In this document: positions 33,429 through 49,432 of the stretch, piece by piece
Layout: every line of letters starts with the position of its first letter
Position numbering within the stretch: the stretch's first letter is position 1
Assembly: GCA_041558415.1 (NCBI GenBank)
Contig: JBFFEY010000009.1
Span: 2,648 to 66,647, forward strand
DNA length: 64,000 nt
DNA from: Burkholderiales bacterium
GTDB taxonomy: Bacteria; Pseudomonadota; Gammaproteobacteria; Burkholderiales; SG8-39
Direction: 5' to 3'
Position numbers and translations under genes: made by a program
The notes under the pieces: generated by a model
Seen by the model: only the letters and a program-made list of their open reading frames with translations
Databases searched by the model: none
Told to the model about the DNA's origin: nothing

Positions 33429-33761
33429 TCAGACGCAACCGGTGGGCTTGGGCAGGCCCGCGTACTTGCAGGCCTGCTTTGCCGGCCCGTAGGGATACAG
33501 CTCGTACAGGTACTTGCTGTTGCCCTTGTCAGGTCCGAGTTTCTTGCCGATCGCCTTGGTCAGCACGCGAACCGCCGGCGCGATCTGGTATTCGTCGTAG
33601 TACTCGCGCAGGAAGTTGATGACCTCCCAGTGGGCGTCGGTCAGATCGCAGTTGTCGATGCGCGCCATTTCCTTGGCCACGTCCTCCGACCAGTCGCCGC
33701 GATCTGCGAGATAGCCCTCCTCGTCGGTTTCCAGCGTCTTGCCGTTCACTTCGATGCTCAT
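33429..33761 (-). CDS. dsrC: DsrC, canonical form with both C-terminal-arm cysteines
   Basis: 110 aa ending PAKQACKYAGLPKPTGCV (Cys at -11 and at the penultimate position). Confidence 0.95.
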   Translation of the reverse strand: MSIEVNGKTLETDEEGYLADRGDWSEDVAKEMARIDNCDLTDAHWEVINFLREYYDEYQIAPAVRVLTKAIGKKLGPDKGNSKYLYELYPYGPAKQACKYAGLPKPTGCV

Positions 33762-33780
33762 GTCGTGTCTCTCCTTTAAG

Positions 33781-34080
33781 TCAAAGCCATGACTGCACGG
33801 CGTTGTGCTCGACCACCAGATCCACGAAGCCGCCGTAGTCCACGAGCCGAACGCCGTCCATCACCCGGTTCTGCATGCCGCGCGCCTCGACATCGGCCTT
33901 GAGAGCGTAGACCGAGACCCGCTGCATCGCATCCTGCAACTGCTGCGCCAGCGCCGTGTCGCGCGCCGCGGCGTACACGCCGTCCTCGATCAGCAGCACC
34001 GCACTGCCCGGCCGCGCGTAGCGCAGGCAGCTGGCGAGCACGTTGTGCTCGAACGGGGATTTATTGACCGTATGCAGCAT
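33781..34080 (-). CDS. dsrH: Sulfurtransferase complex subunit DsrH
   Basis: 99 aa, MLHTVNKSPF..LASCLRY. Confidence 0.9.
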   Translation of the reverse strand: MLHTVNKSPFEHNVLASCLRYARPGSAVLLIEDGVYAAARDTALAQQLQDAMQRVSVYALKADVEARGMQNRVMDGVRLVDYGGFVDLVVEHNAVQSWL

Positions 34081-34089
34081 GCCTGCACC

Positions 34090-34473
34090 TCAGAAGCTCA
34101 GTACGACGTCCTGGTTTTCCATGATCTCGGCCATGCGCTCGGCGCTGACCAGCTGCACCGGCACCATGAGATCGGCCTCGCTGAGCCCGCGCGCGCGCAG
34201 CGCATCCTCGTCGACGTAGAGCTTGTTCACGTCGTAGTCGTCGAGCGCGCGGAAGGCTGGCGAGAAATTCTTCACTGCCAGTGCCTTGGTGTCCTGCCCT
34301 TTGACGAGCTGGTAGACGCCGTCGCCGACGAAGGCGAGGCTCACGTCCTGCTCGAACGCGGCGCCGATCAGCACCACTTCGAGCGACTCGTGCGCGTAGA
34401 TCGTCCCGTGCGGCGCCTTTCGGTTCACGTAGAGGAAGCGCTTGACCTCGCTGCCTGCGTGTTCTTCGGACAT
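34090..34473 (-). CDS. dsrF: Sulfurtransferase complex subunit DsrF
   Basis: 127 aa, FLYVNRKAPHGTIYAHESLEVVL. Confidence 0.9.
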   Translation of the reverse strand: MSEEHAGSEVKRFLYVNRKAPHGTIYAHESLEVVLIGAAFEQDVSLAFVGDGVYQLVKGQDTKALAVKNFSPAFRALDDYDVNKLYVDEDALRARGLSEADLMVPVQLVSAERMAEIMENQDVVLSF

Positions 34474-34492
34474 CGTTCTTTCCCCGTTGCGC

Positions 34493-34885
34493 TCAGTCGC
34501 CGAACACCACGAGGCGATCGGACTGGATGCCGGCCTCGATCAGCTGTCCGAGCCCCGAGATGCGGAAGCCCGGCGCGATGTTGTCGGCATCCTTGCCGTG
34601 GCGCTTGGCTTCCCCCGGATCCATCACGCCGCGGCGCTGCGCCGCGGCGATGCACACGACCAGGTCGAGCGCGTGCTTCTCCGCCAGCTCGCTCCAGCGC
34701 TTGACGATGTTGCGGTCGTCCTGCGGCGGCACCGTCAGGCGCGTGCCGTTGTTGACGCCGTCGTGATAGAAGAACACGCGGAAGATCTCGTGCCCCTTGT
34801 CGAGCGCCGCCTTGACGAAGTGGTAGGCCGTGTCCGAGGCCTGGTGCGTGTAGGGCCCCTCGTTCACCAAGATGCCGAGCTTCAT
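34493..34885 (-). CDS. dsrE: Sulfurtransferase complex subunit DsrE
   Basis: 130 aa, MKLGILVNEGPYTHQAS..LVVCIAAAQRRG (active-site Cys). Confidence 0.9.
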   Translation of the reverse strand: MKLGILVNEGPYTHQASDTAYHFVKAALDKGHEIFRVFFYHDGVNNGTRLTVPPQDDRNIVKRWSELAEKHALDLVVCIAAAQRRGVMDPGEAKRHGKDADNIAPGFRISGLGQLIEAGIQSDRLVVFGD

Positions 34886-34898
34886 CGCCGCGCGAGCC

Positions 34899-35993
34899 TC
34901 AGAAGCGGATGTGCGTCGACGCGTTTAGGCTGTTGCGCGCGCCGCGCCAGTTGTCGATATGGAACTTGGTGAACGGCAGCCCGGTCATCTCGAAGAAGCG
35001 CGGCCAGCCGATGCGCTCCACCCAGTCGCCGACGCGCTCCCAGTCGCGCGCGTCCTTCTTGTAGGTGTAGAGGATCTTCTTCACCACCTCGGCGACCTCG
35101 GGCCATCGCGGCGGATTGTTCGGCAGGCCCGCCGCCACCAGCTTCTGGAACATCGGCTTGGAGCGTGCATTCGAGTTCTTGCCGCCCACCCAGATCGCGA
35201 GCTTGGAGTGCTCGGGATCGTTGATCTGCATCGGCGGGCAGGGCGGGTAGCAGGCGCCGCAGCAGATGCACTTCTTCTCGTCGACCTCGAGCGAAGGCTT
35301 GCCGTTCACCATCGCCGGGCGGATCGCCGCCACCGGGCAGCGCGCCACCACCGAGGGCCGCTCGCACACGTTCGCCACCAGGTCGTGGTTGATCTTCGGC
35401 GGCTTGGTGTGCTGCACGTTGATCGCGATGTCGCCCTGGCCGCCGCAGTTGATCTGGCAGCACGATGTCGTGATGTGCACGCGGTTGGGCATTTCCTCCT
35501 TGATGAACTCCTCGTAGAGCTCGTCCATCAGGGACTTCACCACGCCCGAGGCGTCGGTGCCGGGAATGTCGCAGTGCAGCCAGCCCTGCGTGTGCGAGAT
35601 CATGGTCACCGAGTTGCCAGTGCCGCCGACCGGATAGCCCGCGTCGTTGAACGCCTGAATGAGCGGCTCGACCTTGTCCCAGCTCGACACCATGACCTCG
35701 AGGTTCGAGCGGATGGTGAAGCGCACGTAGCCCTCGCCGTACTTGTCGACGATGTCGCACAGCAGGTTGATCTCGTAGGGCCCGAGCTGGCGCTGCGTGC
35801 CGACGCGCACGGTCCAGATCTCGTCGCCCGAGTAGGCGACGTGGTGCAGCACGCCCGGCCGCGGCCGGTCGTGGTACTTCCAGTTGCCGAAATTCTTCAA
35901 CATGAGCGGGTGCATGTACTGCATGCCGTCCGGGCAGCCGCTCTCGATCGGCGGACGCATCTGCTTCTTTTCCGCCGCCTGTGCCTGTGCCAT
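34899..35993 (-). CDS. dsrB: Reverse-type dissimilatory sulfite reductase beta subunit
   Basis: 364 aa, siroheme/FeS motifs TTSCCQINCGGQGD, CICCGACYPPCP. Confidence 0.95.
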   Translation of the reverse strand: MAQAQAAEKKQMRPPIESGCPDGMQYMHPLMLKNFGNWKYHDRPRPGVLHHVAYSGDEIWTVRVGTQRQLGPYEINLLCDIVDKYGEGYVRFTIRSNLEVMVSSWDKVEPLIQAFNDAGYPVGGTGNSVTMISHTQGWLHCDIPGTDASGVVKSLMDELYEEFIKEEMPNRVHITTSCCQINCGGQGDIAINVQHTKPPKINHDLVANVCERPSVVARCPVAAIRPAMVNGKPSLEVDEKKCICCGACYPPCPPMQINDPEHSKLAIWVGGKNSNARSKPMFQKLVAAGLPNNPPRWPEVAEVVKKILYTYKKDARDWERVGDWVERIGWPRFFEMTGLPFTKFHIDNWRGARNSLNASTHIRF

Positions 35994-36057
35994 CGCCTGC
36001 TCCTCCGTCTACGCCGCAGCCCGCCTCAGGCGGCCTGCTGGCCTTGCGCGGCGCGCC

Positions 36058-37356
36058 TCATGCCGCCTTGTCCTGGTGACGCTCGACCCACTTCTGCGCC
36101 TCCTTGTCCCAGTCATCGAGCCGCACGTACGAGCTGGTGCGCGGATGGGTGATCATGTTCGGGTCGACCTCGATGCCGATGCCCTCGAGGAAGGCGGCGA
36201 GCCCGATGCGCTCGATCATCTCGCCGCAGCGCTCGTGTTCGAGACCGTTCTCGGCCCAGAAGTCGATCACCGTGGCGGAAAGCTCGCGCAGCTTTTCGAA
36301 GTCCTCGTCGCCCTCCAGCTTCATGAACGGCACGATGACCGTGCCCATGGTGTCGCCGATCTTGAGCGTGCGCTTGCCGCCGATCAGCACCGTGACGCCC
36401 TTGTCGTCGCCAGGCTTGAGCGCCTTGGTCATGACGTTGATGCAGTGCATGCAGCGCACGCAGCTCTTGTTGTCGACGTCCAGCGTGTCATCGTCGTTCA
36501 GCGAGAGCGCCTGGGTCGGGCAGCGTGCGATCACGTTGTCGATGGTGTACTTGCGGCTGTGGCTGTCGATGTAGGCCTTGACCTCCTTCTGGTCGACCTT
36601 CATGTCGTCGCGCCAGGTGCCGATCACCGCGAAGTCCGCGCGCTGGATCGAGTTCATGCAGTCGTTCGGACAGCCCGAGACCTTGAACTTGAACTTGTAG
36701 GGCAGCGCCGGCCGGTGCATGTCGTCGATGAAGTTGTTGACCAGCGTGCGGTGGATGCGGTGCTCGTTGGTGCAGGACTGCTCGCAGCGCGCCGCACCGA
36801 CGCAGGACATCGCGGTGCGCACGCAGGGACCTGCACCGCCGAGGTCGAAACCGTACTCGTTGATCTCGTCGAAGAAGTGCTGCGTGTTCTCGGTGCTGGC
36901 ACCGATGAACATGATGTTGCCGGTCTGGCCGTGGAAGGCGATCAGCCCCGAGCCCCACTTGCTCCAGGAGTTCGACAGCTGGCGCAGCATCTTCGTCGTG
37001 TAGTGGTTGCCCGCCGGCGGCTGCACGCGCAGCGTGTGGAATTCCTTCGACTCCGGGAACAGGCTCGCGACTTCGGAAAAGCGCGGAATGATGCCGCCGC
37101 CGTAGCCGAACACCGAAACCGTGCCGCCCTTCCAGTAGCCGAGCCGCGTCTTGTACGAGTGCTCGAGCTGGCCGAGCAGGTCGACCATCATGTTGTTCTC
37201 GTGCGCGAGGCGCTTGAGGCCCGTGACGAAGCTCGGCCACGGCCCGCTCTCGAGCTGATCGAGCATGGGCGTGGCATGAAACGGCTTGCTGGACTTCTTC
37301 TCTTTCGGCAGGTAGCTGCTGTGCCGGGTCGGGTCCTTCGGCGGCGTCTGCGGCAT
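36058..37356 (-). CDS. dsrA: Reverse-type dissimilatory sulfite reductase alpha subunit
   Basis: 432 aa from ATG 37356 (GAGGAGG 5 nt upstream; the ORF track start at 37422 is probably too long). GPWPSFVTG, CVGAARCEQSC, VSGCPNDC, CVRCMHCINV. Confidence 0.93.
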   Translation of the reverse strand: MPQTPPKDPTRHSSYLPKEKKSSKPFHATPMLDQLESGPWPSFVTGLKRLAHENNMMVDLLGQLEHSYKTRLGYWKGGTVSVFGYGGGIIPRFSEVASLFPESKEFHTLRVQPPAGNHYTTKMLRQLSNSWSKWGSGLIAFHGQTGNIMFIGASTENTQHFFDEINEYGFDLGGAGPCVRTAMSCVGAARCEQSCTNEHRIHRTLVNNFIDDMHRPALPYKFKFKVSGCPNDCMNSIQRADFAVIGTWRDDMKVDQKEVKAYIDSHSRKYTIDNVIARCPTQALSLNDDDTLDVDNKSCVRCMHCINVMTKALKPGDDKGVTVLIGGKRTLKIGDTMGTVIVPFMKLEGDEDFEKLRELSATVIDFWAENGLEHERCGEMIERIGLAAFLEGIGIEVDPNMITHPRTSSYVRLDDWDKEAQKWVERHQDKAA

Positions 37357-37453
37357 GGGTGCCTCCTCGACGATGTGCGCGACGGTGAAGCTGGAGTTTA
37401 GCCACGCACCGCGCACGGGCATCAGTGATCTTATGGGGTAGCTCGCGAACCGC

Positions 37454-37481
37454 CGCGCCTATCCCTTTGGAGATAGGCGCG
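37454..37481. promoter_or_regulatory. GC-rich stem-loop/inverted repeat in the dsrA / TauD-like divergent intergenic region
   Basis: cgcgcctatc-cctttgga-gataggcgcg: 10-bp perfect stem with an 8-nt loop, about 100-125 nt upstream of the dsrA ATG. Confidence 0.4.
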
Positions 37482-37548
37482 CCGGGAAGATCCTGAATTC
37501 TGTCTTTCGTTCAGAGGGTTGCGCCCCTCCAATCACTGTTGTCGGGTC

Positions 37549-37564
37549 CTGATGGCACCATCAG
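37549..37564. promoter_or_regulatory. 16-bp palindrome, candidate transcription-factor operator
   Basis: CTGATGG-CA-CCATCAG (7-2-7, perfect), about 85 nt upstream of the TauD-like GTG and about 195 nt upstream of the dsrA ATG. Confidence 0.4.
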
Positions 37565-37646
37565 TTCGTCGCACCGCAACATTCCGCGCGCGCCCGCGAT
37601 GCGGTAGTTTCGGACGCCCAGAATCGATAGCTGATCGCCGCGGCAC

Positions 37647-38558
37647 GTGGATCGCGCCAACCCCGCACTGCAGAAGCGTTCCGAAGACCCGTTCTCGCTC
37701 GACGCGCCGCAGGCCTATGCGCGCTGGCGGGCGGGCAAGCTCGCGCGCGCGCCGCACAGCGCCGCGGCGCTGCTGGTCGAAGTGCGCGACCCGCGCCGGC
37801 TGAGTGGCGCCGAGACCCAGGCAATCCTCGAGCGCTGCACGCACGCCAACATGGCGGTCTACGCGAGCCCGCTCGCCGGTGTCGAGGACCGCGACCTGCC
37901 GCGACAGCTCGGCACGCAGCTCGGCCTCGCCGCGCCGCGGGCCAACCTGCTCTCCGAGGAGGATGCGCTGAGCGTGCTCGAGGCGAACCCCGCCAAGGCC
38001 GCGCGCGGCTACATCCCCTACTCGAACCGCCGTCTGCTGTGGCATACCGACGGCTACTACAACGCGCCGAGCGCGCGCATCCGCGCCTTCATCCTGCACT
38101 GCCTGCGACCAGCGCAGAGCGGTGGCGCGAACCGCCTGCTCGATCCGGAGCTCGCCTACATCGCGCTGCGCGACGCCGACCCGGCCTACATCGCCGCGCT
38201 CTCGGCGCCGGACGCGATGACGATCCCGGCCAACGTCGTCGACGGCGTCGAGATCCGCCCCGCCTGCAGCGGGCCGGTGTTCTCGGTGATCGGCGGCGCG
38301 CTGCACATGCGCTACACCTCGCGCACGCGCAGCATCGAATGGCGTGACGACGCGACGACGCGCGCCGCGCTGCAGTGCCTCGAGGCGCTGCTCGCGCGCG
38401 ACGCGCCGCCCGTGCTCGCGCTGCGCCTGGAAGCGGGCATGGGCATCGTCTGCAACAACGTGCTGCACGAGCGCAGCGCCTTCAGCGATGCGCCGGGCGC
38501 CGGCCGGCGCGTGTATCGTGCGCGCTATTGCGCGCGCGTCGGCGAGCACATGGCATGA
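37647..38558 (+). CDS. TauD/TfdA-family Fe(II)/2-oxoglutarate dioxygenase
   Basis: 303 aa, GTG start. WHTDGYY (HxD), NNVLHERS (distal His), RVYRARY. Protein-like composition, whereas the antisense 338-aa ORF is Arg/Ala junk. Confidence 0.75.
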   Translation: MDRANPALQKRSEDPFSLDAPQAYARWRAGKLARAPHSAAALLVEVRDPRRLSGAETQAILERCTHANMAVYASPLAGVEDRDLPRQLGTQLGLAAPRANLLSEEDALSVLEANPAKAARGYIPYSNRRLLWHTDGYYNAPSARIRAFILHCLRPAQSGGANRLLDPELAYIALRDADPAYIAALSAPDAMTIPANVVDGVEIRPACSGPVFSVIGGALHMRYTSRTRSIEWRDDATTRAALQCLEALLARDAPPVLALRLEAGMGIVCNNVLHERSAFSDAPGAGRRVYRARYCARVGEHMA

Positions 38559-39277
38559 AGCACATCCCGCTCAAGTTCATCCGCGAGGACCCCTCGGTCG
38601 GCAACGCCGATGACGCCTCGGACGCCAGGGAAGCGACCGGCCTGCTGAAGCGGCTGGTCGAGGACCTCAGCGAGCGGCTCGCCGCACTATCGCCCGGCGC
38701 CGACCCGCTGCGCCGCGCCGATCTGCTGCTGCAGCTGGGCCGCGCCCAGGTGCGCCTGGAGGACCACGCCGCGGCCTGGGCCGCCGCGCGCGAGGCGTTC
38801 GATCTGTACATGGCCGCGCAGGCGCGCGAAGGCGCGGCGCAGGCCTGCGACGTCATGTTTCTCGCCGAGCAGCCGCAGTCGCTCGCCGCGCTCGGGCAGG
38901 GCATCTGGATCGCGGTGACCTACCCGATCGACCCGGAACTGTCGGTCGCGCTGCTGCAGCACGTCGTCGACGAGACGCCACCGGACGCCGACGGCGCCGC
39001 CGTGGCTGCGATCACCGCCTGCTACCTCGTCGACCTGCGCGCGCGCGAGCCGCAGCGCGAGCACCTGCTCATCTACACGAACCAGCTGCTCGCCACGGTC
39101 GCCCGCCGGCATAGTGGCGTGCAGGGACAGGAAGATTTCGACCGCTGGATCGAAGCGCTCGAGCTGAACGACCCGGCGCTGTTCCTGCCGCGCCTGCGCA
39201 ACGTGGTCGACGTACTGGTGCAGGACGACTGGTGGTTCGACCGCGACGCGCTGCAAGCCGCGTTGCCGACGGGATGA
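38555..39277 (+). CDS. Hypothetical acidic alpha-helical protein
   Basis: 240 aa from ATG 38555 (ATGA overlap with the TauD-like stop): MKHIPLKFIREDPSVGN... No motif I recognise. Coupled on both sides. Confidence 0.6.
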   Translation: MKHIPLKFIREDPSVGNADDASDAREATGLLKRLVEDLSERLAALSPGADPLRRADLLLQLGRAQVRLEDHAAAWAAAREAFDLYMAAQAREGAAQACDVMFLAEQPQSLAALGQGIWIAVTYPIDPELSVALLQHVVDETPPDADGAAVAAITACYLVDLRAREPQREHLLIYTNQLLATVARRHSGVQGQEDFDRWIEALELNDPALFLPRLRNVVDVLVQDDWWFDRDALQAALPTG

Positions 39278-39981
39278 GCGCGGCGCTCGCGCAACGCATG
39301 GACGATCCCGCGACGACTCCGGCAGGCGACGTCGTCGACGCGGTGTTCGGGATCGACTGTGCGTGCCTACCGGTCGATCATGCTTGGGCGCTGTCGCAGG
39401 CGATCCAGGCGGTTCTGCCCTGGTTCGTCGACGAGCCGCGCGCCGGCCTGCACACGGTGCACGGTGCGGCCTCGGGCGCGGGCTGGCAGCGACCCGAGGG
39501 CGAGCACGCGCAGCTGCAGCTTTCCCGGCGCACGAAGCTCGTGCTGCGGCTCCCCGTGCATCGCATGGCGGACGCGTCGGCGCTCAGCGGCCGGACGCTC
39601 GATGTCGCGGGCTCTGCGATGCGCGTCGGGCGGCTGTCCGCACGCCCGCTCCTGCGCATCGCGTCGCTCTTCTCGCGCAGCGTGATCTTCGAAGGCGCCG
39701 CCGACGAAACGGCGTTCGTCGCCGCCGCGACCGAGGCACTGCGCGCCCTCGACGTGGAGGCCTCCACGATGCTCTGCGGGCGCGACGTGACGCTCAGCAC
39801 GCCGCAGGGCAGCTACCGCACGCGCAGCCTGATGCTGACCGTCGCGACGCCCGCGCAGTCGCTCGCGCTCCAGCGCGAGGGCCTCGGCGGATCGCGCAAG
39901 CTCGGCTGCGGCGTCTTCATCCCCCACAAGGACGTAGGCGACCTGCGCACTGAGGCGCGCACGCGCGAAGACTGGGACTAG
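39274..39981 (+). CDS. Cas6/Cmx6-like protein (orphan; no CRISPR array or other cas genes in window)
   Basis: 235 aa from ATG 39274 (ATGA overlap). The C-terminal GLGGSRKLGCG fits the Cas6 glycine-rich loop GhGxxxxxGhG. The N-terminal CLPVDHAWALSQAIQAVLPW..GLHTVHG resembles the Cmx6 branch as I recall it. Confidence 0.55.
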   Translation: MSAALAQRMDDPATTPAGDVVDAVFGIDCACLPVDHAWALSQAIQAVLPWFVDEPRAGLHTVHGAASGAGWQRPEGEHAQLQLSRRTKLVLRLPVHRMADASALSGRTLDVAGSAMRVGRLSARPLLRIASLFSRSVIFEGAADETAFVAAATEALRALDVEASTMLCGRDVTLSTPQGSYRTRSLMLTVATPAQSLALQREGLGGSRKLGCGVFIPHKDVGDLRTEARTREDWD

Positions 39982-40373
39982 CCTTGGCCTTCCGGCGCAC
40001 CCTGCCAGAGCATGTCGTAGCCGAGCTCTTGGGTCTCGGCGCACATCTTCGCCACCGCCTCGAACTTGTTGGAGAACGTGGCGTCGGCGTGCGAGCGCTC
40101 GTGCGCCTCGAAGGAGTGCCAGTAGGTGACGATGACATAGTGCTCGTCGGCGCTCTTCGAGGCGTTGAGCGAGCCTTCCTCGGAGACGAAGCCGGAGAAC
40201 TTGAACACCTGGCCGGCGATGAAGCCGCCCTTGTCGCCGCCGTAGGTCTCCTTGACGACGTTGCACATCTCGCCGACGGCGAGCTCGATGTCCTCGAACG
40301 TCACGCCCGGCTTGAGCTTGACGGTGTTGAACAGCATCTTCGCGCCGAAGGGCAGCGTGATCGGATCGAACAT
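39978..40373 (-). CDS. Hypothetical protein, possibly ABM/Dabb-like alpha+beta barrel
   Basis: 131 aa, protein-like composition. HYVIVTYWHSFEAHERSH is reminiscent of ABM-domain proteins (weak). Confidence 0.55.
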   Translation of the reverse strand: MFDPITLPFGAKMLFNTVKLKPGVTFEDIELAVGEMCNVVKETYGGDKGGFIAGQVFKFSGFVSEEGSLNASKSADEHYVIVTYWHSFEAHERSHADATFSNKFEAVAKMCAETQELGYDMLWQGAPEGQG

Positions 40374-40448
40374 GAGGTTGGCTCCTTGCGATGACTTAAG
40401 GGCAGTGCCTATTAGATACGATTTTCTTTTCCGAGTTTAGAGGCGACC

Positions 40449-40790
40449 ATGAATTACGAAGTGAACGGCAAAGTGCTGGAAACCACCGAGAACGGCTTTC
40501 TCGTTTCGCAGGACGACTGGGACCGGGACGTCGCTGAAGTGATCGCGGCGACTGAAGGCCTTACCCTCACCCAGGATCACTGGGACGTGATCGACTACCT
40601 GCGCGAGGCGTTTTTCGAGCATAACGGCGAGCAGCCGAACAACCGCGCGATCCTCAAGGCCATGCAGGAGAAGTGGGCCGGCCGCAAAGTCGACAACAAG
40701 ACGCTGTTCGACCTCTTTCCGGGCAATCCCTCGAAGCAGGCCGGCATGATCGCCGGGCTGCCCGAGAGCATGCGCAAGGGCGGGTACTGA
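40449..40790 (+). CDS. DsrC/TusE-family paralog with no cysteine in the C-terminal arm
   Basis: 113 aa, MNYEVNGKVLETTENGFLVSQDDWDRDVAEVIA..LTQDHWDVIDYLREAF..FPGNPSKQAGMIAGLPESMRKGGY. Confidence 0.75.
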   Translation: MNYEVNGKVLETTENGFLVSQDDWDRDVAEVIAATEGLTLTQDHWDVIDYLREAFFEHNGEQPNNRAILKAMQEKWAGRKVDNKTLFDLFPGNPSKQAGMIAGLPESMRKGGY

Positions 40791-40874
40791 GGGAGCCGAT
40801 TCGAGCGAGACGCCGGTATTGGCACTCCGGTCGTGCCGCGCCGCGAGTAAGAATTGGTGACAGAATGGGCCGCC

Positions 40875-41129
40875 ATGACCGCGCCCGACTCGACCCTGAT
40901 GACCAAGTACGGCTTCCGCATCCGCACCCGCGGCGGAACGCCAGTCGATAACCTCGCGGTGCAGGCGCGCGACCAGGCTGAGGCCGAGCGCAAGATCAAC
41001 CAGATCTACCCGAGCTGCGAGATTCTCGAGTGCCGGCAAATCCAGTCGGCGATCGGCGACGACGCGCTCAATCTCGATAGCATCATCTCGCTCATCGCGC
41101 GACAGCCGGACGAGAAATCCGACGGCTAG
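40875..41129 (+). CDS. Small hypothetical protein
   Basis: ORF 40854-41129. Candidate starts are TTG 40854, ATG 40875 and ATG 40899. MTKYGFRIRTRGGTPVDNLAVQARDQAEAERKINQIYPSCEILECRQI. The 3' end overlaps the parA stop by 4 nt. Confidence 0.4.
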   Translation: MTAPDSTLMTKYGFRIRTRGGTPVDNLAVQARDQAEAERKINQIYPSCEILECRQIQSAIGDDALNLDSIISLIARQPDEKSDG

Positions 41130-41902
41130 ACGGGTCGCGCTTCGACGAAGCCGGTCTGCACCAGCTCGTCCACCAGCGCGTCGTAGTTCTGCGCGCCCTT
41201 GCTTTCCGGGGCATGCGCGAACACGTCCTTGCGCACCGCCGGGCTCTCGGCGAGCGCCACGTTCTCCGGGATGCGCGTACGGCAGATCTCGTCGCCATAA
41301 CGCTCGAGCAATGCCTCGTGGATCTGGTGCGATAGCTTGCGCCGGGTGTCGAATCGCGTGACTACGTAGCGGCGCACGACCCGCTTCTTGAGCACGTGCT
41401 CGAGCGCCTTGAGGGTCTTCTCGCTCTGCTGCACGCCCTTGATTGCCAGGAAGTCGGCCGACACCGGGATCAGCACGCGGTCAGCGGCGAAGATCGCCGA
41501 CAGCGACAGCACGCCGAGCATCGGGCAGCAGTCGATGACGATTGGCCGTCCGGTGTTTAGGTTTTCCCGCACAATGCCGTGATTCAGTCGGTTCAGCACG
41601 TTCACCCCTTTGCCGAACTGCGTGTCCACCTTCGACAGCTCGACATGTGCCGGAATCACCAGCCAGCCGCCGGTCGAGGCCCGGATAAGCTGGGTAAGCG
41701 GCTTGGACTGGTGGAAGAAGCCGAACACCGATTCCTCCGAGCGCTCGACGGTGGCGCCGCAGACGTAGGACAAATGGGCCTGGGGATCGAGGTCAATCGA
41801 CAGCGGGTTGTAGCCGCGCCGGGAGAGCGCCGCCGTGAGGTTGAGCGAGGTGGTCGTCTTCCCCACCCCGCCCTTCTGGTTGAAGATCGCGATCTTCACC
41901 AT
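41126..41902 (-). CDS. ParA/Soj-family ATPase (orphan; no parB next to it)
   Basis: 258 aa, deviant Walker A NQKGGVGKTTTSLNL, IDLDPQ, VIDCCP. Confidence 0.9.
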   Translation of the reverse strand: MVKIAIFNQKGGVGKTTTSLNLTAALSRRGYNPLSIDLDPQAHLSYVCGATVERSEESVFGFFHQSKPLTQLIRASTGGWLVIPAHVELSKVDTQFGKGVNVLNRLNHGIVRENLNTGRPIVIDCCPMLGVLSLSAIFAADRVLIPVSADFLAIKGVQQSEKTLKALEHVLKKRVVRRYVVTRFDTRRKLSHQIHEALLERYGDEICRTRIPENVALAESPAVRKDVFAHAPESKGAQNYDALVDELVQTGFVEARPV

Positions 41903-42641
41903 GCCGAACGTCCCCCCCCCGGCCGGACCATCGCGGTCCGGTGCCCCAAGGAAATCGTCGAATCAGGGGCTTGCCAACATAATTAATGTACCGCTAAACG
42001 CGCTCGGATCACTCCCGGGGAGTGCATCGAAAAGGCTAAATTTTTATATTGCCCGTCAGCGCCGTTCGGGGCGCGTGCGGCGGCCGGCGAATACTCGCCG
42101 ACGGCACATTCGACGGTCTCTTTTGCGCCGCTTCAAGCCAGCCTTGGCCGTCACCGACCGGCCAGGAGCGGACGGCCGCGCTCGGCTGCGCCCACCCGGC
42201 TGCCACTGGGAGAAAGCCTCGCATGCGCTTCTGATCGCTCGGCCGGTACGCGGGTGATACCTAGGCGCCGCGCCATTTTTAGGTTGGGCCCGCTGGCCGC
42301 GCCCGATCGGCGTCCGAAAGGCTCGTGCGCTTCGGTTCCGTATCGTGCTTCAACGCTTGCGCTTGCAATCGTGTTGACCGCCAAACCGCCATGTCATCCG
42401 GTCACCGCCGGCATTGGTCCGCGGAACAGTGGCCCGCGCTTGTCGCCGCATGGAGGCCGATCGCCCGGCGATAGGAATTCGCACCCCACAGGCTTTTTCA
42501 GGCGCCACCTGGACTGAGCCTCGGGCGCGGGCACTTGCCGGCCGTGCCCGCCGCGGCCGGCACGACGCCGCCCGAACATTGTCAGTTTGCGACTACCGCA
42601 GCTACCCTGGCAGCGGGCCGTATAGGCCTGCGTCGGTATGT

Positions 42642-43112
42642 TCACGGTGCTGTCATCGTGCTGACGTGAGCAGCGACAATACGCCAGCCCCCGGGAAACC
42701 TAACCCAGGTTTGCATCGTCCGGCCGATCCGGCCACCGCCCGGGACATTGCGCATGGCGACGGTTGCGAAGTCTCTGCCGTAGGTGGTGACAATCACCGA
42801 CTCCCGAACAAGCGACGGCGGCGCGGTGACCGAGGCCCTGTAAGCACGGATCTGCTCAATGCCATACAGATTCTCGGCATTCCCGAAGCGGACTGACGTC
42901 GGACTGTCGAGGAAAAACCGGTTGAGAGACGCGACGTCGTTCGTCAGCAGGGCCCGGTTGTAATCAGCTACCAGCGCTTCGATTTCGCCAACCACTTGCG
43001 GGTCGTTCAACAGATATTCGCTCTGTGCGTGGCTGGTCGCCGTGATGGCAACCGCGCAGAGCGCAGCGCCAAGCAGACCCGAAAACCGATGTTGTGCAGT
43101 CCATTTTTTCAT
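42642..43112 (-). CDS. AtzH-like/DUF3225 SnoaL-fold protein with signal peptide
   Basis: 156 aa, signal MKKW..AITATSHA-QS. LNDPQVVGEIEALVADYNRALLTNDV..VRFGNAENLYG..GRTMQTWVRFPGGWRIVAAHVS. Confidence 0.7.
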   Translation of the reverse strand: MKKWTAQHRFSGLLGAALCAVAITATSHAQSEYLLNDPQVVGEIEALVADYNRALLTNDVASLNRFFLDSPTSVRFGNAENLYGIEQIRAYRASVTAPPSLVRESVIVTTYGRDFATVAMRNVPGGGRIGRTMQTWVRFPGGWRIVAAHVSTMTAP

Positions 43113-43468
43113 GTGTCAGACCCGAAAGATAGACGCTGTGCCGGCCTGCAGTGTACTTGCAAAAGAGTATGCAGCGATGCTGCCGGGTAAACTTCATGCG
43201 CGTATAGGAAATTCAAATCCCCTGTTTCGAGCGAGCATCGTTCGCCGAGCCCACGCTCGCGGCGCTCCGGCACTTGAATCGGAACGTGTGCGAGTTCCGG
43301 GCCACGGACCGCCCCTGCTGCGTCCCCCGAATCTCCAAACTTTATTTACCATAAGGCCCCATGCGCGCCGGCCTTGCAGCCGCGGCCACGACCGACCATC
43401 GCCCCAAGCACCGTTCACCGAGCCGAAACACGCCCCAACCACGCGCAATTCGCGGCATGAGGGCGAAG

Positions 43469-43717
43469 GGATTTCTTATCCGTCCCGAGCTCGCGTCGCG
43501 CAGCAGCGCCGACCATATCCAGACGGCGATCTCGCTCGCGCGCGATGCGCCGAGGCGGGAATTGATCTGCAGCCGCCTGCTCGCGCGCCCGGCGAGCGCT
43601 CCGCTGTTCGACACCGCGCGCACCGTGCGTGCCCTCGAGCGCGCCTATGATCGGATGTGGTCGATCCGCCAGGCCGGCGAAGTGCCGCGCGCATTCAACG
43701 TCGACGACGCCGGCTGA
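43469..43717 (+). pseudogene. C-terminal remnant of a SPINDLY/OGT-type TPR glycosyltransferase
   Basis: The tail of ORF 43361-43717 reads ..SSADHIQTAISLARDAPRRELICSRLLARPASAPLFDTARTVRALERAYDRMWSIRQAGEVPRAFNV. This is the typical last ~70 aa of that family, with no catalytic or TPR body upstream. Confidence 0.45.
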
Positions 43718-43746
43718 TCGGTCCGCGCGCCGCGCAGCTCAGACCC

Positions 43747-45498
43747 TCAAGTCGTCAGACCGGCCGCGATCATGCAGTCGCGGCAGTGGATCAAGTCGGC
43801 CTCGTTCTGGTAATGCGCGGTCGCCATGACCGCCTCCAGGTCGAGCGCCGGGTCGCGCTTGCGCGCCTCGCTCATGTGCTGCGCCGCCGTCGCGGCATCA
43901 CCGAGCTTCGCGTAACAGGCTGCCAGCATCAGGTGATGCATGACGTCGAGCGGGCTGATGTGGCGCACGGACTGGATCGCCTCGTCATAGCGGTGCGCGG
44001 CGAACTGAGCGCGGCCGAGGTGAGACCAGAAGCGGTCCGGGTGGAACGGGTTCAGGCGCATCGCCTTGCGGATCCACTCGATGCCTTCCTCGGGCTTGCC
44101 GAGCCAGGTCAGCAGCTCGCCGTGCTGCACCACGATCAGGTCGTCGTTCGGGTTCAGGCTGAGCGCACGCTCCTGGTGGTAGATCGCCTTGTCGTGCTGG
44201 TTCTGCACGATGTGCACCGCGGCATAGATGCGGTGCACGTCGCTGTCGTTGTCGTCCAGCGCGAGCGCGGCGTCGAGCTCGCGCACGATGACGTCCTCCG
44301 TCGCCTTGCGGTCGGCGCACCAGCCGTAGCCCCACTGCTGCCCGAGGATGCAGGCCTTCCAGGCATGCGCATGCCCGTACTTCGGATCGAGCTCGATCGC
44401 GCGCTCGGCCAGCTGCAGCGCCGCGGCGTTCTCGTCGCGCTGCGAGCGATGATGGCGGACCTTGGCCGCGAGCAGGCACTCGTAGGCCGCCATGTTGTGC
44501 GTCTGCTTGCGCTCGGCGCGATCGCGCGCCGCCGCCTCGACCCGCCCGGGGAGCGTCGCGACGATCGCGCGCGTCACCTCGTCCTGTATGTCGAAGATGT
44601 CCTCGAGCTGCCGGTCGTAGCGCTCGGCCCAGACGTGGTGGTCCGATTCGCCGTCGATCAGCTGCACCGTGATGCGCACGCGGCTGCCCGCCTTGCGCAC
44701 GCTGCCTTCGACCACGTACTGCACGCCGACCTCGCGCGCCACCTTCTTCACGTCGACCGCCTGGCCCTTCAGCTTGAACGCGGTGTTGCGCGAGATGACG
44801 AACAGCTCCCTGAAGCGCGACAGCTCGGTGAGGATGTCCTCGGTGAGCCCGTCGACGAAGAACTCCTGCTCGGGGTCGCCGCTCATGTTGGTGAACGGCA
44901 GCACGATGATCGAGGGCTTCACCTGCTGCGCCGGCGCGGCGGCGCCTTCGCGCGCCGCGCCGGTGCCGAGCCGCAGGCGATAACAGCGCACCGGAGTCGC
45001 GATGTTCTTCAGCTCGACTTCGCCTGCGTCCTCGAAAACGAGATCGAGCTTGCGCCGCACCTCATCGTGCACCTTCGCCGAAACGCACACGCCGCCGCCC
45101 TCGGCGAGCGCCTCAAGCCGTGCGGCGACGTTCACGCCGTCCCCGTACAGCCGCCCGTCCTCGACGATCACGTCGCCGAGGTTGATCCCCATGCGGAACT
45201 GCATGCGCCGGTTCTCGGGCAGCCGGCCGTTGCGCCGCGCGAGCTCGGCCTGGATGTCGGCCGCCGCCTGCACCGCGTCGACCGCGCTGCCGAACTCGGC
45301 GAGCACGTTGTCGCCCGGCATGTCGACGATCCGCCCGCGATGGTCGGCGACCGAGCTCGAAATGAACGCCCGGTACTCGGCGAGCGTGCGCACAGTCGCC
45401 ACCTCGTCCTCGCCCATCAGGCGGCTGTAGCCGGCGACGTCGGCGCTCAGGAACGCGCCGAGCCGGCGTTGCATCGAAGAATCAGGGGCCTGCGCCAC
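43747..45498 (-). CDS. Class III adenylate/guanylate cyclase with TolB-N-like and TPR C-terminal region
   Basis: 583 aa, LSADVAGYSRLMG..GDNVLAEFGSAVDAV..MGINLGDV..GDGVNVAARLE, then IVLPFTNMSGDPEQEFFVDGLTEDI, then TPR-like repeats. Confidence 0.85.
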   Translation of the reverse strand: MAQAPDSSMQRRLGAFLSADVAGYSRLMGEDEVATVRTLAEYRAFISSSVADHRGRIVDMPGDNVLAEFGSAVDAVQAAADIQAELARRNGRLPENRRMQFRMGINLGDVIVEDGRLYGDGVNVAARLEALAEGGGVCVSAKVHDEVRRKLDLVFEDAGEVELKNIATPVRCYRLRLGTGAAREGAAAPAQQVKPSIIVLPFTNMSGDPEQEFFVDGLTEDILTELSRFRELFVISRNTAFKLKGQAVDVKKVAREVGVQYVVEGSVRKAGSRVRITVQLIDGESDHHVWAERYDRQLEDIFDIQDEVTRAIVATLPGRVEAAARDRAERKQTHNMAAYECLLAAKVRHHRSQRDENAAALQLAERAIELDPKYGHAHAWKACILGQQWGYGWCADRKATEDVIVRELDAALALDDNDSDVHRIYAAVHIVQNQHDKAIYHQERALSLNPNDDLIVVQHGELLTWLGKPEEGIEWIRKAMRLNPFHPDRFWSHLGRAQFAAHRYDEAIQSVRHISPLDVMHHLMLAACYAKLGDAATAAQHMSEARKRDPALDLEAVMATAHYQNEADLIHCRDCMIAAGLTT

Positions 45499-45749: not shown

Positions 45750-46064
45750 TCAGGCGTAGTGCTTGCGCTGTGCGCGGCGTCGGCCCGCGCGCTGCACCAC
45801 GCCGCCGCGAATGGTGTAGGGCGGGACGAGCTCGAAGCCGCCGTACTTCGGATTGAGCGGCTCGAGATATCGGCGCTCGCCGTCCACCACGAGGCGGCGG
45901 AAGAAGATGTCGCCGGCATACTCGACGATCACGTACGAGCCGTGCTTCGCGACGTGGCCGGGGTCGACGATGACGATGCAGCCATCGGGGAACTCCGGCT
46001 CCATGCTGTCGCCGAGCACGCGCAAGGCGTAGGGCTCGAGCTCGCTGCAGGCGCTCTCAGTCAT
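45750..46064 (-). CDS. S24 (LexA/UmuD-like) peptidase-domain protein without DNA-binding domain
   Basis: 104 aa, LRVLGDSMEPEFPDGCIVIVD..GSYVIVEYAGDIFFRRLVVDG..LEPLNP. Confidence 0.75.
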   Translation of the reverse strand: MTESACSELEPYALRVLGDSMEPEFPDGCIVIVDPGHVAKHGSYVIVEYAGDIFFRRLVVDGERRYLEPLNPKYGGFELVPPYTIRGGVVQRAGRRRAQRKHYA

Positions 46065-46323
46065 CCTGTTTCCCGGGCTTGCGCACCAGCTTTATGGCCT
46101 GCTTTGCGCCCGCCGGCTCGTCGGCGTAGCGCGGGCGCGCGCTCGGGTCGCGGCCCGCGGCTTGCGCAAGCTCGCGCTCGCGCGCGCTGATCAGCGCCAG
46201 GCACTGACGCAGGTCCTCGATGGTCGCGTCCGAGAGCGGGTGGCGCATGCCATGCGGCGTCGCGGTATCGCGGATGACGCCGGCGAGGGTGTGCTTCACC
46301 GCCTGCAGGATCCGCTCTTCCAT
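46057..46323 (-). CDS. Small hypothetical protein upstream of S24-like gene
   Basis: 88 aa from ATG 46323 (alternative GTG at 46356). MEERILQAVKHTLAGVIRDTATPHGMRHPLSDATIEDLRQCLALISARERELA. 8-nt overlap with the S24 start. Confidence 0.5.
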   Translation of the reverse strand: MEERILQAVKHTLAGVIRDTATPHGMRHPLSDATIEDLRQCLALISARERELAQAAGRDPSARPRYADEPAGAKQAIKLVRKPGKQDD

Positions 46324-46340
46324 CGAAAGCTCGGTCTCGC

Positions 46341-47015
46341 TCACAGCTCCGACCACATGCGGATCAGGTTCGAATAGGCGGCGTTCACCTGCGCGGTCTC
46401 CTCGGCATCGGGCGCGGTACGCAGCAGCTTCTCGCGCGCGAGATTGAGGCCGTAGAGTAGCGCACGCCGCGCCGGATCGCGCACCACGCTCTGCACCCAG
46501 GTCACCGCCACGAGGCGCTCGCCGCGCGTCACCGGGCTGACGCGATGGATCGTGCCCGCCGGGTAGAGCACGGCGTCGCCCGCCGGGCGCTTCACGGCCT
46601 GCTCGCCCGATGCGCCGCGGATCACCAGCTCGCCGCCGTCGTAATCCTCGGGCGCGCTGAGAAAAACCGTCACCGCGACGTCCGACCGATACAGTACGCC
46701 GCCCGTGCCCATGATCGCATCGTCGAGGTGCTCGCCGTATTCCATGCCCGGCGCGTAGCGGACGTACAGCGGCGTCGCGGCGTGCAGCGGCAGCGCGCCG
46801 CCGCGATACACCGGGTGGTGCGCGAGTTTTCCCATCACCATCTCGTCGAGGCGCTCGAGCGCGCCGGCACTGCGCTCGGCTTCGAGGTTGTGCTTGACGC
46901 GCCGCGCGGCGGCGCCCGCCGAGGCCTTGCCGTCGACGAAGCGCACCCCCTCGAGCCAGCTGCGCGCGAGCGCGAGCTCGTCAGGTTTGAGGACGCCGGG
47001 AACGATGAGCAGCAT
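46341..47015 (-). CDS. PKHD-type Fe(II)/2OG hydroxylase (YbiX/PiuC-like)
   Basis: 224 aa, MLLIVPGVLKPDEL..GEHLDDA (HxD)..DYDGGELVI..LYPAGTIHRVSPVTRGERLVAVTWVQS. Confidence 0.85.
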   Translation of the reverse strand: MLLIVPGVLKPDELALARSWLEGVRFVDGKASAGAAARRVKHNLEAERSAGALERLDEMVMGKLAHHPVYRGGALPLHAATPLYVRYAPGMEYGEHLDDAIMGTGGVLYRSDVAVTVFLSAPEDYDGGELVIRGASGEQAVKRPAGDAVLYPAGTIHRVSPVTRGERLVAVTWVQSVVRDPARRALLYGLNLAREKLLRTAPDAEETAQVNAAYSNLIRMWSEL

Positions 47016-47021
47016 GCGGGC

Positions 47022-47615
47022 TCAGGCGAAACAGACCCAGGTGGTGGCGATGTATTTCACGCCGCGCTCGAGCGTCGCGCCGCGGTGCGGGTGGGTCCAG
47101 AACGGCGGGAACAGCGCGAGCTTGCCCTCGCGCGGCCGGATCGAGACGCCCTGCAGCGGGAACTCGGTCTCCCCGCCCGGGCCCTCGACGTCGTTCAGGT
47201 ACCAGATCGCCACCAGCTGGCGGTCGCTGAACGCACCCGGCCCCGAGTCGACGTGCCAGTGGTAGTACTCGCCCGGGCGCGTGCGCTGCAGGTTGTAGCC
47301 GATGTCCTTGAAGCGGTTGGCGGCGAAGAATGGGAACTCGCCCGCCAGGAGCTGGTGCGCCGCGGAAAGCTGCTGCGCGAGGATGCGGTCGATGTCGGCC
47401 CAGTCCTCGCGCCCGCTGATGCGCAGGTCGGTCGAGCGTTTGACCTCGGGCGCCGTTTCGGCGGCCTGCCCGATACGGCCGGCGACCTGCTGCCCGGGGT
47501 TCGCCTCGAAGCGGCGGATCATCTCGCGGCACACGTCGCCCGGCAGCGCGCGCTCGGCTTCCCAGACGAAGCTGAGCGGCTTGAGCTCGCGGAGTGGCGC
47601 GCCGGCGATGATCAC
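47022..47615 (-). CDS. 2OG-Fe(II) oxygenase, prolyl 4-hydroxylase-like
   Basis: 197 aa, YYHWHVDSG (HxD)..VAIWYLNDVEGPGGETEF..LALFPPFWTHPHRG. Confidence 0.75.
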   Translation of the reverse strand: MIIAGAPLRELKPLSFVWEAERALPGDVCREMIRRFEANPGQQVAGRIGQAAETAPEVKRSTDLRISGREDWADIDRILAQQLSAAHQLLAGEFPFFAANRFKDIGYNLQRTRPGEYYHWHVDSGPGAFSDRQLVAIWYLNDVEGPGGETEFPLQGVSIRPREGKLALFPPFWTHPHRGATLERGVKYIATTWVCFA

Positions 47616-47618
47616 GGC

Positions 47619-48020
47619 TCAGGCGAACAGCAGCTCGGTGTTCTGCATCTCGCCGGCCGCGTCGACGTCCACGCCCACCACACCCGGCATGCGCGCCGCG
47701 ATGTACGAAGCCATCAGCATCGCGGTGGCTTCGTTGCCCTGCGTGAGGCTGGTGAGCAGCTTGTCGGCCGCGATCTGGCAGCGCTGCAGCCGGTCCGGCA
47801 TGGACACGAAACTGCGGCTCATCTGCCAGCCGCGGTCCATGTCGCGGTCGAGGCGCGCGTGGAACTCGTCCGCCTCGCGCATCAGCGCCTCCGGCACGTT
47901 CACCGCGTAGGTCTGGTCGCCGACGATCACCTTGAAGCGCATATCTCTTTCGGCCAGATTGAAAGTTGCCCCCACTTCAATACCATAGTCCGGTTCGATC
48001 AGAGGAGCCAAAGTGGCCAT
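47619..48020 (-). CDS. Hypothetical protein
   Basis: 133 aa, protein-like composition. Stop lies 3 nt before the next gene start. No recognisable motif. Confidence 0.55.
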   Translation of the reverse strand: MATLAPLIEPDYGIEVGATFNLAERDMRFKVIVGDQTYAVNVPEALMREADEFHARLDRDMDRGWQMSRSFVSMPDRLQRCQIAADKLLTSLTQGNEATAMLMASYIAARMPGVVGVDVDAAGEMQNTELLFA

Positions 48021-48647: not shown

Positions 48648-48722
48648 GAACGCTCCGTGCGGGCCTGACGCGCCCGATGCGGCAGACTATCATCTGCGCA
48701 TCAGGCAGAGCGAGTGCGACAC

Positions 48723-49316: not shown

Positions 49317-49432
49317 AGCGGCGCCGGCGCGCGCGCGTCCGCCGGGCGCGAAACGCTGCGCCCGATTGCGCATCACTGCGCGCGCGCGTATAACTTCAAG
49401 CCCGTCCCGCAGGCCGCACGAGCGTCGCCGTC

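Follow-up and report, generated by a model that had tools for sequence, protein, structure and literature searches.

We analysed a three-gene module that includes a Cas6-family gene in a 64,000-nt stretch of DNA from a Burkholderiales bacterium (GenBank assembly GCA_041558415.1, contig JBFFEY010000009.1, positions 2,648 to 66,647; G+C content 69%), hereafter called the window. The three genes lie on the plus strand and were designated g1, g2 and g3. The first, g1 (37647-38558; GTG start, TGA stop at 38556-38558), encodes a 303-aa TauD/TfdA-family Fe(II)/2-oxoglutarate (2OG) dioxygenase, g2 (38555-39277; ATG start at 38555) encodes a 240-aa acidic protein predicted to be all-helical and TPR-like, and g3 (39274-39981; 235 aa counted from the ATG at 39274) encodes the Cas6/Cmx6-family protein at the core of the module. 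The g1/g2 and g2/g3 junctions both read ATGA, each stop codon overlapping the next start. An earlier note on this DNA, made from its letters alone, had proposed these three open reading frames (ORFs) and both overlaps, which we recovered at the same positions, and had taken the trio to be almost certainly co-translated. The overlaps are real in the window, but the one between g2 and g3 is not universal: close homologs of g3 are mostly 219-222 aa long and in one related locus (L002) g3 starts 4 nt past the g2 stop, so the second coupling is plausible without being general.

Divergently from the trio, dsrA (36058-37422, minus strand) heads the operon dsrABEFHC (33429-37422, minus strand), which was assigned from ORF translations and is followed further leftwards by dsrM and dsrK. 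The operon is of the oxidative type, since DsrEFH are present, and its DsrC (33429-33761) terminates in PTGCV. Pfam labels of the syntenic genes in two related loci, L001 and L002, agree with the dsr assignments. A divergent control region (37357-37646) with sequence boxes and a -10-like element is shared by dsrA and g1. Beyond g3, on the plus strand, lies a gene for a cysteine-less paralog within the DsrC/TusE/RspA family (40449-40790), here named DsrC2.

In order to place g3 in a wider context, one genome per species was scanned for relatives, and at least 594 species genomes were found to carry them. The loci compared here are the 80 most similar of these at least 594, together with two long metagenome contigs (82 loci in all, referred to by L numbers), which were searched by tblastn with the window proteins. 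Both sequence profiles and a predicted structure identify g3 as a true member of the Cas6 family. It matched Pfam PF09559 (Cas6) with an E-value of 5e-57 and 193.4 bits (cutoff 26.7) and the NCBIfam equivalog TIGR02807 (cas6_cmx6) with 122.5 bits (cutoff 98.85); the Cas6 models of PADLOC matched as well, and a profile built from 30 diverse g3 members retrieved the Cas6 of a type I-B CRISPR-associated transposon (CAST; 8fcj_B) with an E-value of 3e-26. The AlphaFold2 (AF2) model of g3 (predicted local distance difference test score, pLDDT, 88.4; predicted template modelling score, pTM, 0.84) contains beta-alpha-beta-beta-alpha-beta-type elements and the two tandem RRM/ferredoxin-like domains typical of Cas6. 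When this model was used in a Foldseek search of the PDB, the top 37 matches were all Cas6 or Cas6e structures, with best template modelling (TM) scores of 0.73-0.80. The earlier note had assigned g3 to the Cas6/Cmx6 branch and expected a double ferredoxin/RRM fold; profile scores and model agree on the former, and the Cas6 structures retrieved by the model bear out the latter.

The hallmarks of the family are present in g3 and have been kept in its relatives. The glycine-rich loop GhGxxxxxGhG occurs as GLGGSRKLGCG at residues 203-213, and its glycines G203, G205, G211 and G213 vary little or not at all, both among the 30 diverse members and over the 82 loci. Over the same loci the motifs LP.DHA, GW.RP, S.R...LR.P and G.G..R..GCG.F.P.K are retained, and R86, R92 and K219 do not vary across the 30 diverse members. 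An Asp-His dyad (D35, H36) at the N-terminus of helix 1 is kept in at least 90% of sequences and is also found in a Gloeobacter Cmx6 protein. Members of the Cas6 superfamily characteristically bind and cut an RNA in a sequence-specific way, and most have a catalytic His/Tyr/Lys set. The g3 clade has in addition features of its own, namely an insertion of about nine residues (SGNGW.RP) and the ending ...GCGLF.P(H/Q)K. The ratios of nonsynonymous to synonymous substitution rates (dN/dS) were 0.41-0.54 for g1, 0.23-0.30 for g2, 0.28-0.41 for g3 and 0.08-0.19 for DsrC2, values that indicate purifying selection on all four genes.

The closest known systems are the Cas6/Cmx6 proteins of type I-MYXAN and of type I-B CAST (8fcj and 8fcu, chain B), which have the same double RRM/ferredoxin fold and the same glycine-rich loop. 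Unlike CRISPR-bound Cas6/Cmx6, g3 is accompanied by no array, Cascade, cas3 or cas1-2, and its neighbour is dsrAB in place of a cas operon. It shares 21-22% identity with the CAST Cas6, from which it differs by the clade insertion, the P(H/Q)K ending and a neutral instead of a basic charge. The fold also resembles those of Pyrococcus furiosus Cas6, Cas6e/CasE and Sulfolobus Cas6 (Foldseek E-values of 1e-9 to 1e-4), and the glycine-rich loop of the clade aligns with the loop of CasE; these proteins, which are CRISPR RNA (crRNA) processors encoded in cas operons, have 8-16% identity to g3. A search of plasmids gave two cyanobacterial Cmx6 genes, and the annotated Cmx6 proteins on cyanobacterial plasmids are 25-26% identical to g3. 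One of the plasmids, pGMOR1 of Gloeobacter morelensis (L083, NZ_CP063846.1, 79927-80718), carries a Cas6/Cmx6-annotated protein that is basic (isoelectric point, pI, 9.3), with neither a cas gene annotated nearby nor a repeat array in the 10 kb to each side. Its neighbours are hypothetical proteins, two PAPS-reductase-family genes, a cupin and DNA methyltransferases, and this locus may be another non-canonical context for the Cas6/Cmx6 family.

A Cas6 protein would be expected beside a CRISPR array and other cas genes, and neither was found. In the 64-kb window, Tandem Repeats Finder (TRF) detected no CRISPR array, Rfam at gathering thresholds gave no match, CRISPR repeat families included, and PADLOC, run on 41 window ORFs selected by codon bias, matched its Cas models to g3 alone. 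The three tools therefore agree with the absence of an array and of other cas genes that had been claimed for the window. The same was true of the 82 related loci, where no CRISPR-like array and no other cas gene was seen within 10 kb on either side; periodic repeats in L029 that had been considered as a CRISPR candidate proved to be a plain 55-bp tandem repeat. Membership in the TIGR02807 equivalog would imply the function of its CRISPR-linked seeds, as part of a type I cas operon, and the context found instead is dsr in 54 of 62 informative loci. The label "type I-MYXAN CRISPR-associated protein Cas6/Cmx6" that public pipelines attach to the dsr-linked clade is probably a systematic functional mis-annotation.

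The position beside dsr is conserved. Nearly all of the best 80 of the at least 594 relatives come from sulfur oxidisers, among them Burkholderiales metagenome-assembled genomes, Sulfuricaulis, Acidiferrobacterales, Thiogranum, Thiohalobacter, Sedimenticola, Allochromatium warmingii, Thiothrix and Beggiatoaceae, as well as symbionts of Solemya and Lamellibrachia. When the count was limited to loci with at least 4.5 kb of upstream sequence, a divergent dsrA was found upstream of the Cas6-like module in 54 of 62, in sulfur oxidisers of both the Beta- and the Gammaproteobacteria; the eight loci without it belong to Beggiatoaceae (five), Arenicellales (two) and Thiothrix (one). The proposal that the trio is conserved together and tracks dsr was in this way upheld, and the Cas6-like gene is part of the dsr locus, not a stray cas6. 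We conclude that g3 belongs to a large, distinct and CRISPR-independent branch of the Cas6 family, of the Cmx6 type, that is inherited within the oxidative dsr locus.

The partners of the Cas6-like gene are less uniform than a fixed trio would imply. Among the 73 loci whose upstream sequence is long enough for this count, 46 carry both the TauD-type gene and g2, 11 the TauD-type gene alone, seven g2 alone and nine neither. The partnership of oxygenase and Cas6-like protein, taken to be fixed in the earlier note, is not fixed: TauD accompanies the Cas6-like gene in 57 of these loci and is missing from 16, while g2 is present in 53. Loci in which g2 and the Cas6-like gene occur without TauD include those of Allochromatium, Sedimenticola and symbionts. 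More constant than TauD or g2, though not flagged in the earlier note, are DsrC2, which in 67 of 78 loci comes directly after the Cas6-like gene, and, in the Gammaproteobacteria, a protein of about 60 aa. The pairing of Cas6-like gene and DsrC2 persists away from dsrAB in L070 and L075, and in Beggiatoaceae the Cas6-like gene, also away from dsrAB, is paired with the ~60-aa protein, so that loci which otherwise look like "solo" Cas6 do have a partner. The core of the module is thus the Cas6-like protein and DsrC2, to which individual lineages have added the TauD-type dioxygenase, the acidic TPR-like protein or, in the Gammaproteobacteria, the ~60-aa protein.

DsrC2 matched PF04358 (E-value 4e-32) and TIGR03342, with the DsrC family signature spanning residues 3-106, and its closest solved structure is A. 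vinosum DsrC (1yx3, E-value 3e-20), with which it has the fold in common. It differs from that protein in lacking the cysteines and the KPTGCV arm: the two cysteines of the C-terminal arm of DsrC (...C...PTGCV) are absent, nearly all orthologs have no cysteine at all, and where DsrC reads ...KPTGCV the arm of DsrC2 is an invariant ...GLPES.RKGGY, with which every full-length ortholog (more than 60) ends. Because both functional cysteines are gone, DsrC2 cannot carry the trisulfide or persulfide of DsrC. DsrC/TusE/RspA family members without C-terminal cysteines have been called "RspA" (PMC8477390). In its degree of conservation the RKGGY tail equals a catalytic motif, and one of the 2OG oxygenases nearby could use it as substrate or recognition arm; that it might be processed to a Gly-Gly end, as in ubiquitin-like sulfur carriers, is pure speculation.

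The ~60-aa protein has the consensus ML.LSE.L.Q...FE.L...GE.FFRIDVKPPYPDTP.NWEDRLE.AF and no Pfam family. It was found directly 5' of the Cas6-like gene, or of g2 where that is present, in 59 Gammaproteobacterial loci (for example L065 8988-9176 of A. warmingii, L029 2933-3106 and L050 9772-9954), and a hidden Markov model (HMM) of it had no match in the window or in 20 loci of Burkholderiales/Betaproteobacteria type (L001-L017, L022, L034, L043). Another small, conserved ORF of about 67 aa (MSDKQEMIKKMIEMQKKFIAYEH...SEKGSHR), followed by a terminator, was observed just 3' of DsrC2 in 18 Gammaproteobacterial loci (for example L039 5172-5372 and L050 11227-11427).

As for the two coupled partners in the window, g1 matched Pfam TauD (PF02668) with an E-value of 4e-17 and 63.4 bits (cutoff 27). 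Its nearest named relatives, TmpA (a 2-trimethylaminoethylphosphonate hydroxylase) and the trimethyllysine and gamma-butyrobetaine dioxygenases of the BBOX/TMLH branch, gave weak NCBIfam matches (TmpA, TMLD and BBOX) far under the cutoffs (34.8 against 400 bits for TmpA). Among solved structures TmpA (6npb, E-value 3e-4) is the closest, with HTD and VLH aligned, and g1 has in common with these enzymes the facial triad HxD...H and a C-terminal Arg. The TauD domain of g1 contains both the HxD/E...H iron triad and the 2OG-binding Arg, and WHTDGYYN, NNVLH.R and RAR are kept in 62 orthologs, in line with the intact Fe(II)/2OG facial triad context that had been read from the translation. Its N-terminal ~110 residues lie outside any family assignment. 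All motifs quoted in the first reading of the trio (WHTDGYY, NNVLHERS, RVYRARY, GLGGSRKLGCG and LPVDHAWAL) were found.

For g2, in which no family had been recognised, sequence and profile searches of Pfam, NCBIfam and the PDB likewise gave no match; it has more than 5000 homologs, all of them unnamed. The AF2 model (pLDDT 76.8) is helical and repeat-like, with 11 helices, and its best Foldseek matches were TPR proteins with a generic helical-repeat likeness (E-values of 0.046 and above). Since the PDB profile search was empty and the fold matches were generic, we gave g2 no specific assignment, and neither profile nor fold searches supported a Cas8- or Cas11-like protein. The family is strongly acidic (median pI 4.5). 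An RNA-mimic role for this acidity was considered and found unsupported, as the pI of the Cas6-like protein shows no systematic shift between loci with and without g2, or with and without TauD.

Expression data exist for Allochromatium vinosum, in which the Cas6-like gene is Alvin_1248. In supplementary Table S2 of PMC11267869, Alvin_1248 (annotated "Cas6-related"), Alvin_1249 and Alvin_1250 adjoin dsrA (Alvin_1251); Alvin_1250 is probably the ~60-aa protein. The sulfur column of that table derives from transcriptome data that Weissgerber et al. 2013 obtained with elemental sulfur, and in it the three module genes have values of 12.5, 6.3 and 17.7 (P 0.002-0.009), DsrA to DsrP values of 0.09-0.29 and SgpB a value of 0.049 (PMC11267869). 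On pyrite the three module genes were unchanged and dsrAB was down about 20- to 25-fold (PMC11267869). Alvin_1248-1250 hence behave as one unit, and opposite to dsr and sgp, whichever the sign of the column.

The control region between dsrA and g1 was then compared among loci. In relatives it holds two direct WTTGGRGATAK (GGGGATAT) boxes about 33 bp apart (range 22-35; for example 8291-8300 and 8324-8333 in L002), with constant spacing to a conserved AGTGTAAT/AGTCTAAT, which, taken on the dsrA strand, is a -10-like TTACACT/TTAGACT. This paired arrangement occurs in both Burkholderiales and Acidiferrobacterales. In the window itself, TTTGGAGATA lies at 37466-37475, a degenerate copy upstream at about 37431-37442, and AGTTTA at 37395-37400 aligns with the AGTGTAAT/AGTCTAAT of relatives. 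Strict matches to the box fell inside the dsrA/g1 intergenic region in 23 of 34 cases across 1.34 Mb of loci, and another Gammaproteobacterial group has one box about 21 nt 5' of a -10-like TATAGT that fronts the ~67-aa ORF beside DsrC2. The box was readily seen in Burkholderiales, Acidiferrobacterales and a Thiogranum-like group, and by pattern it was not found in many other Cas6-bearing loci, such as those of Allochromatium and Sedimenticola. Judged from their sequence and placement, the GGGGATAT boxes are likely the operator of a dsr-regulon regulator. A hairpin at 37454-37481, which had been put forward as the RNA target of g3, does exist in the window but is specific to it: it is not conserved in relatives and shows no covariation. 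The claim of a 290-bp control region shared by the trio and dsrAB accordingly stands, with the correction that its conserved part is the boxes and not the hairpin.

Because no CRISPR locus lies nearby and the gene stands back-to-back with dsrAB here and in more than 50 other sulfur oxidisers, the Cas6-like protein has probably been co-opted for a task in sulfur metabolism. As to what that task is, the reading that we favour is that the protein has kept RNA recognition, and possibly RNA cutting, and that its target is a cellular transcript, most plausibly of the dsr regulon; we put this at roughly 40%. Binding or processing of RNA in the dsr regulon would be the single most likely mechanism since the Cas6 hallmarks have been retained under selection. 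The Cas6-like protein would then act as a post-transcriptional regulator or processing factor of a cellular transcript, the DsrC-like and TPR proteins might serve as its partners or adaptors, and the dioxygenase might provide an input dependent on O2, 2OG and Fe, or act as a modifier. A regulatory relationship would fit the shared, box-bearing promoter region and the opposite regulation in A. vinosum. For the same organism, Grimm et al. in 2010 reportedly found that dsr expression is controlled post-transcriptionally and that DsrC binds DNA. The proposal in its full form, namely a Cas6 clade exapted into energy metabolism whose RNA recognition or cutting sets dsr expression, with TauD responding to O2, 2-oxoglutarate or iron and DsrC2 acting as sensor or adaptor of sulfur status, we regard as doubtful.

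Several observations weigh against an RNA-directed role. The dsr-linked Cas6-like proteins are near-neutral, with a median pI of 6.8 over the 82 loci and of 6.5 over 144 cluster representatives, only 15% of which have a pI above 8.5, and their charge is poorly conserved (pI 4.8 to 10.5). Two related Cmx6-type proteins, the CAST Cas6 and the Gloeobacter plasmid protein, have pI values of 9.2-9.3, and given this difference an RNA role is plausible rather than shown; the RNA activity of the Cas6-like protein is predicted from its sequence and modelled fold. Its partners, a dioxygenase, a TPR-like and a DsrC-like protein, are atypical of RNA processing. The sign convention of the elemental-sulfur column in the A. 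vinosum table is unconfirmed. The boxes look like DNA operator sites of some activator or repressor, and not like a Cas6 RNA site. Nor did a candidate RNA emerge: the dsrA/g1 intergenic region was aligned for 12 and then 17 Burkholderiales loci, and for the latter RNAalifold gave seven weak pairs, none of them compensatory, at -3.3 kcal/mol; no Rfam match was obtained for the window at gathering thresholds or for 37250-40900 at E-values up to 1. An nhmmer search with the Burkholderiales intergenic block gave weak matches at best outside the order. Strong GC hairpins without a common sequence are found in the dsrA-dsrB spacers of many Gammaproteobacteria; most Burkholderiales, whose gap measures 21 nt and which still keep the Cas6-like gene, lack them. 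Spacers between the Cas6-like gene and DsrC2, and regions 3' of DsrC2, hold lineage-specific promoter- or terminator-like elements only.

Some of these points would be explained if RNA function had been lost and the Cas6 fold now served as a protein-binding scaffold, a chaperone or an enzyme subunit in sulfur trafficking or Dsr maturation. The Cas6 fold might handle the RKGGY tail of DsrC2, the TPR-like protein might bind that tail or another peptide, and the TauD- and PKHD-type oxygenases might hydroxylate a protein or a small molecule. Such a role would suit the near-neutral and poorly conserved charge, partners of protein-interaction or enzyme types, the recurrence of three 2OG oxygenases in the neighbourhood, the failure to find an RNA target in the intergenic alignment, the dsrA-dsrB spacers or Rfam, and the invariant C-terminal arm of DsrC2, which implies that some enzyme recognises it. 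However, a protein for which RNA binding no longer mattered would not be expected to keep its glycine-rich loop, its invariant Arg and Lys and the Asp-His dyad; several lineages do without TauD or g2; and we know of no Cas6 or RAMP protein with a non-RNA role. We consider this explanation a serious rival, if somewhat unlikely. A different division of labour, in which the Cas6 fold recognises a transfer RNA (tRNA) or other small RNA that the dioxygenase hydroxylates, would make the pair an RNA- or nucleotide-modifying enzyme, with the DsrC/TusE-like protein echoing the TusE-MnmA-tRNA pathway. TauD and the Cas6-like gene do share one operon, translationally coupled in the window, TauD stands beside the Cas6-like gene without g2 in 11 loci, and DsrC2 belongs to the family of TusE, which in E. 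coli works in tRNA thiolation. Yet TauD is missing from 16 of the 73 informative loci, including those of Allochromatium and Sedimenticola, DsrC2 has no cysteine for a sulfur relay, and to our knowledge no enzyme of the TauD clade acts on nucleic acids, which leaves RNA modification improbable.

We hold it to be similarly improbable that the Cas6-like protein, or the whole module, is a DNA-binding factor that acts on the GGGGATAT boxes and thereby controls transcription of dsrA and the divergent operon. The direct boxes at a fixed distance from the -10-like element of dsrA, the same box ~21 nt 5' of the TATAGT before the small ORF beside DsrC2, the enrichment of the box in the dsrA/g1 intergenic region and the anti-correlated expression of trio and dsr would all be accounted for. 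But the pattern search missed the box in many loci that have the Cas6-like gene (Allochromatium, Sedimenticola), Cas6 proteins are not known to us to bind double-stranded DNA, and DsrC2, with its helix-turn-helix-like fold, is as good a candidate, and so is an unlinked regulator. Least likely of all, and very improbable, is the reading that g3 is a normal cas6 gone astray, still working for a CRISPR-Cas locus at some other place in the genome. That g3 passes the NCBIfam Cas6/Cmx6 equivalog cutoff and is annotated accordingly in public records, that CRISPR repeats are present elsewhere in the A. vinosum genome, and that the evidence on CRISPR from the genome of g3 itself covers the 64-kb window would speak for it. 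Against this stand a position beside dsrA that is fixed across two proteobacterial classes, with no cas gene or array within 10 kb on either side in the 82 loci, the features peculiar to the clade (the GW.RP insertion, the PHK ending and the neutral charge), and the co-regulation of the A. vinosum gene with its two neighbours on a change of sulfur substrate.

The Cas6/Cmx6 family, its database label and the "Cas6-related" annotation in A. vinosum were already known. The association itself had been noted as not known to be described, and no account of it was found: searches of the open-access full-text literature aimed at the Cas6-like/dsr association or at these genes gave no paper that discusses them, although subscription journals may mention them, and a co-mention of Cas6 and TauD turned out to concern unrelated Ralstonia genes. 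Cas components are rarely recruited to roles other than defence, and the known cases, transposon-associated Cascades and type IV systems, still work with CRISPR RNA, whereas the Cas6-family protein studied here has a stable inheritance in hundreds of species without any CRISPR context. How the oxidative Dsr pathway is regulated, and with which accessory factors, is poorly understood, and the module is found directly next to dsrA in sulfur oxidisers that are free-living, symbiotic or phototrophic. The model A. vinosum, which is genetically tractable, has it as Alvin_1248-1250, and there its expression shifts strongly and opposite to dsr, so the question is open to knockouts. If control of dsr through RNA were true, it would be the first physiological CRISPR-independent role of a Cas6-family protein and a new regulatory layer of sulfur oxidation. 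DsrC2 with its RKGGY tail, the ~60-aa partner and the GGGGATAT promoter boxes are new leads besides.

Two features of the spacers were noted in passing. The stem-loops between dsrA and dsrB reach -40 kcal/mol and are in some cases followed by a T-run (for example in L015, L019, L023, L053, L056 and L059); they may be intra-operon attenuators or mRNA-stability elements, and the corresponding spacer of the window is at 35994-36057. Long imperfect palindromes of heptads (CAAGATA/CAAGTAG) lie 3' of DsrC2 in Acidiferrobacterales/"Muproteobacteria" (L018, L026, L027, L031, L036, L038 and L067).

Between g3 and DsrC2 the window has u131 (39978-40373, minus strand), which is convergent on g3 and encodes 131 aa without a Pfam or NCBIfam match. 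Relatives with 85-92% identity were found by tblastn in nine loci (given as L001-L009 and L011, not L010), and u131 is confined to some Burkholderiales loci. Further downstream, a recurrent accessory cluster (45750-49939) was delimited by Pfam/NCBIfam assignments and by synteny in L001 and L002. It comprises an S24 peptidase-like gene, u99, a PKHD/YbiX-type 2OG oxygenase, a second 2OG-Fe(II) oxygenase, u133, a Sel1-repeat protein, u200 and a TusA-domain protein. In L001 (11486-15937) and L002 (11476-17778) the accessory genes come straight after DsrC2 and contain another DsrC-family gene, and homologs of the PKHD oxygenase, u133 and u200 recur near the Cas6-like gene in many Gammaproteobacterial loci. 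The S24 peptidase domain is without an N-terminal DNA-binding domain, and the oxygenases are clustered beside an often anaerobic sulfur pathway. Relative to L001 and L002, the window has an insertion (40854-45498) that separates DsrC2 from the S24 gene. Within it lie a 91-aa ORF and genes for a ParA-like ATPase, an AtzH-like/SnoaL-fold protein and an adenylate/guanylate cyclase-TPR protein, together with about 1.8 kb devoid of a convincing ORF (41.9-43.7 kb). Finally, one of the 41 scanned window ORFs matched a phage-integrase family.

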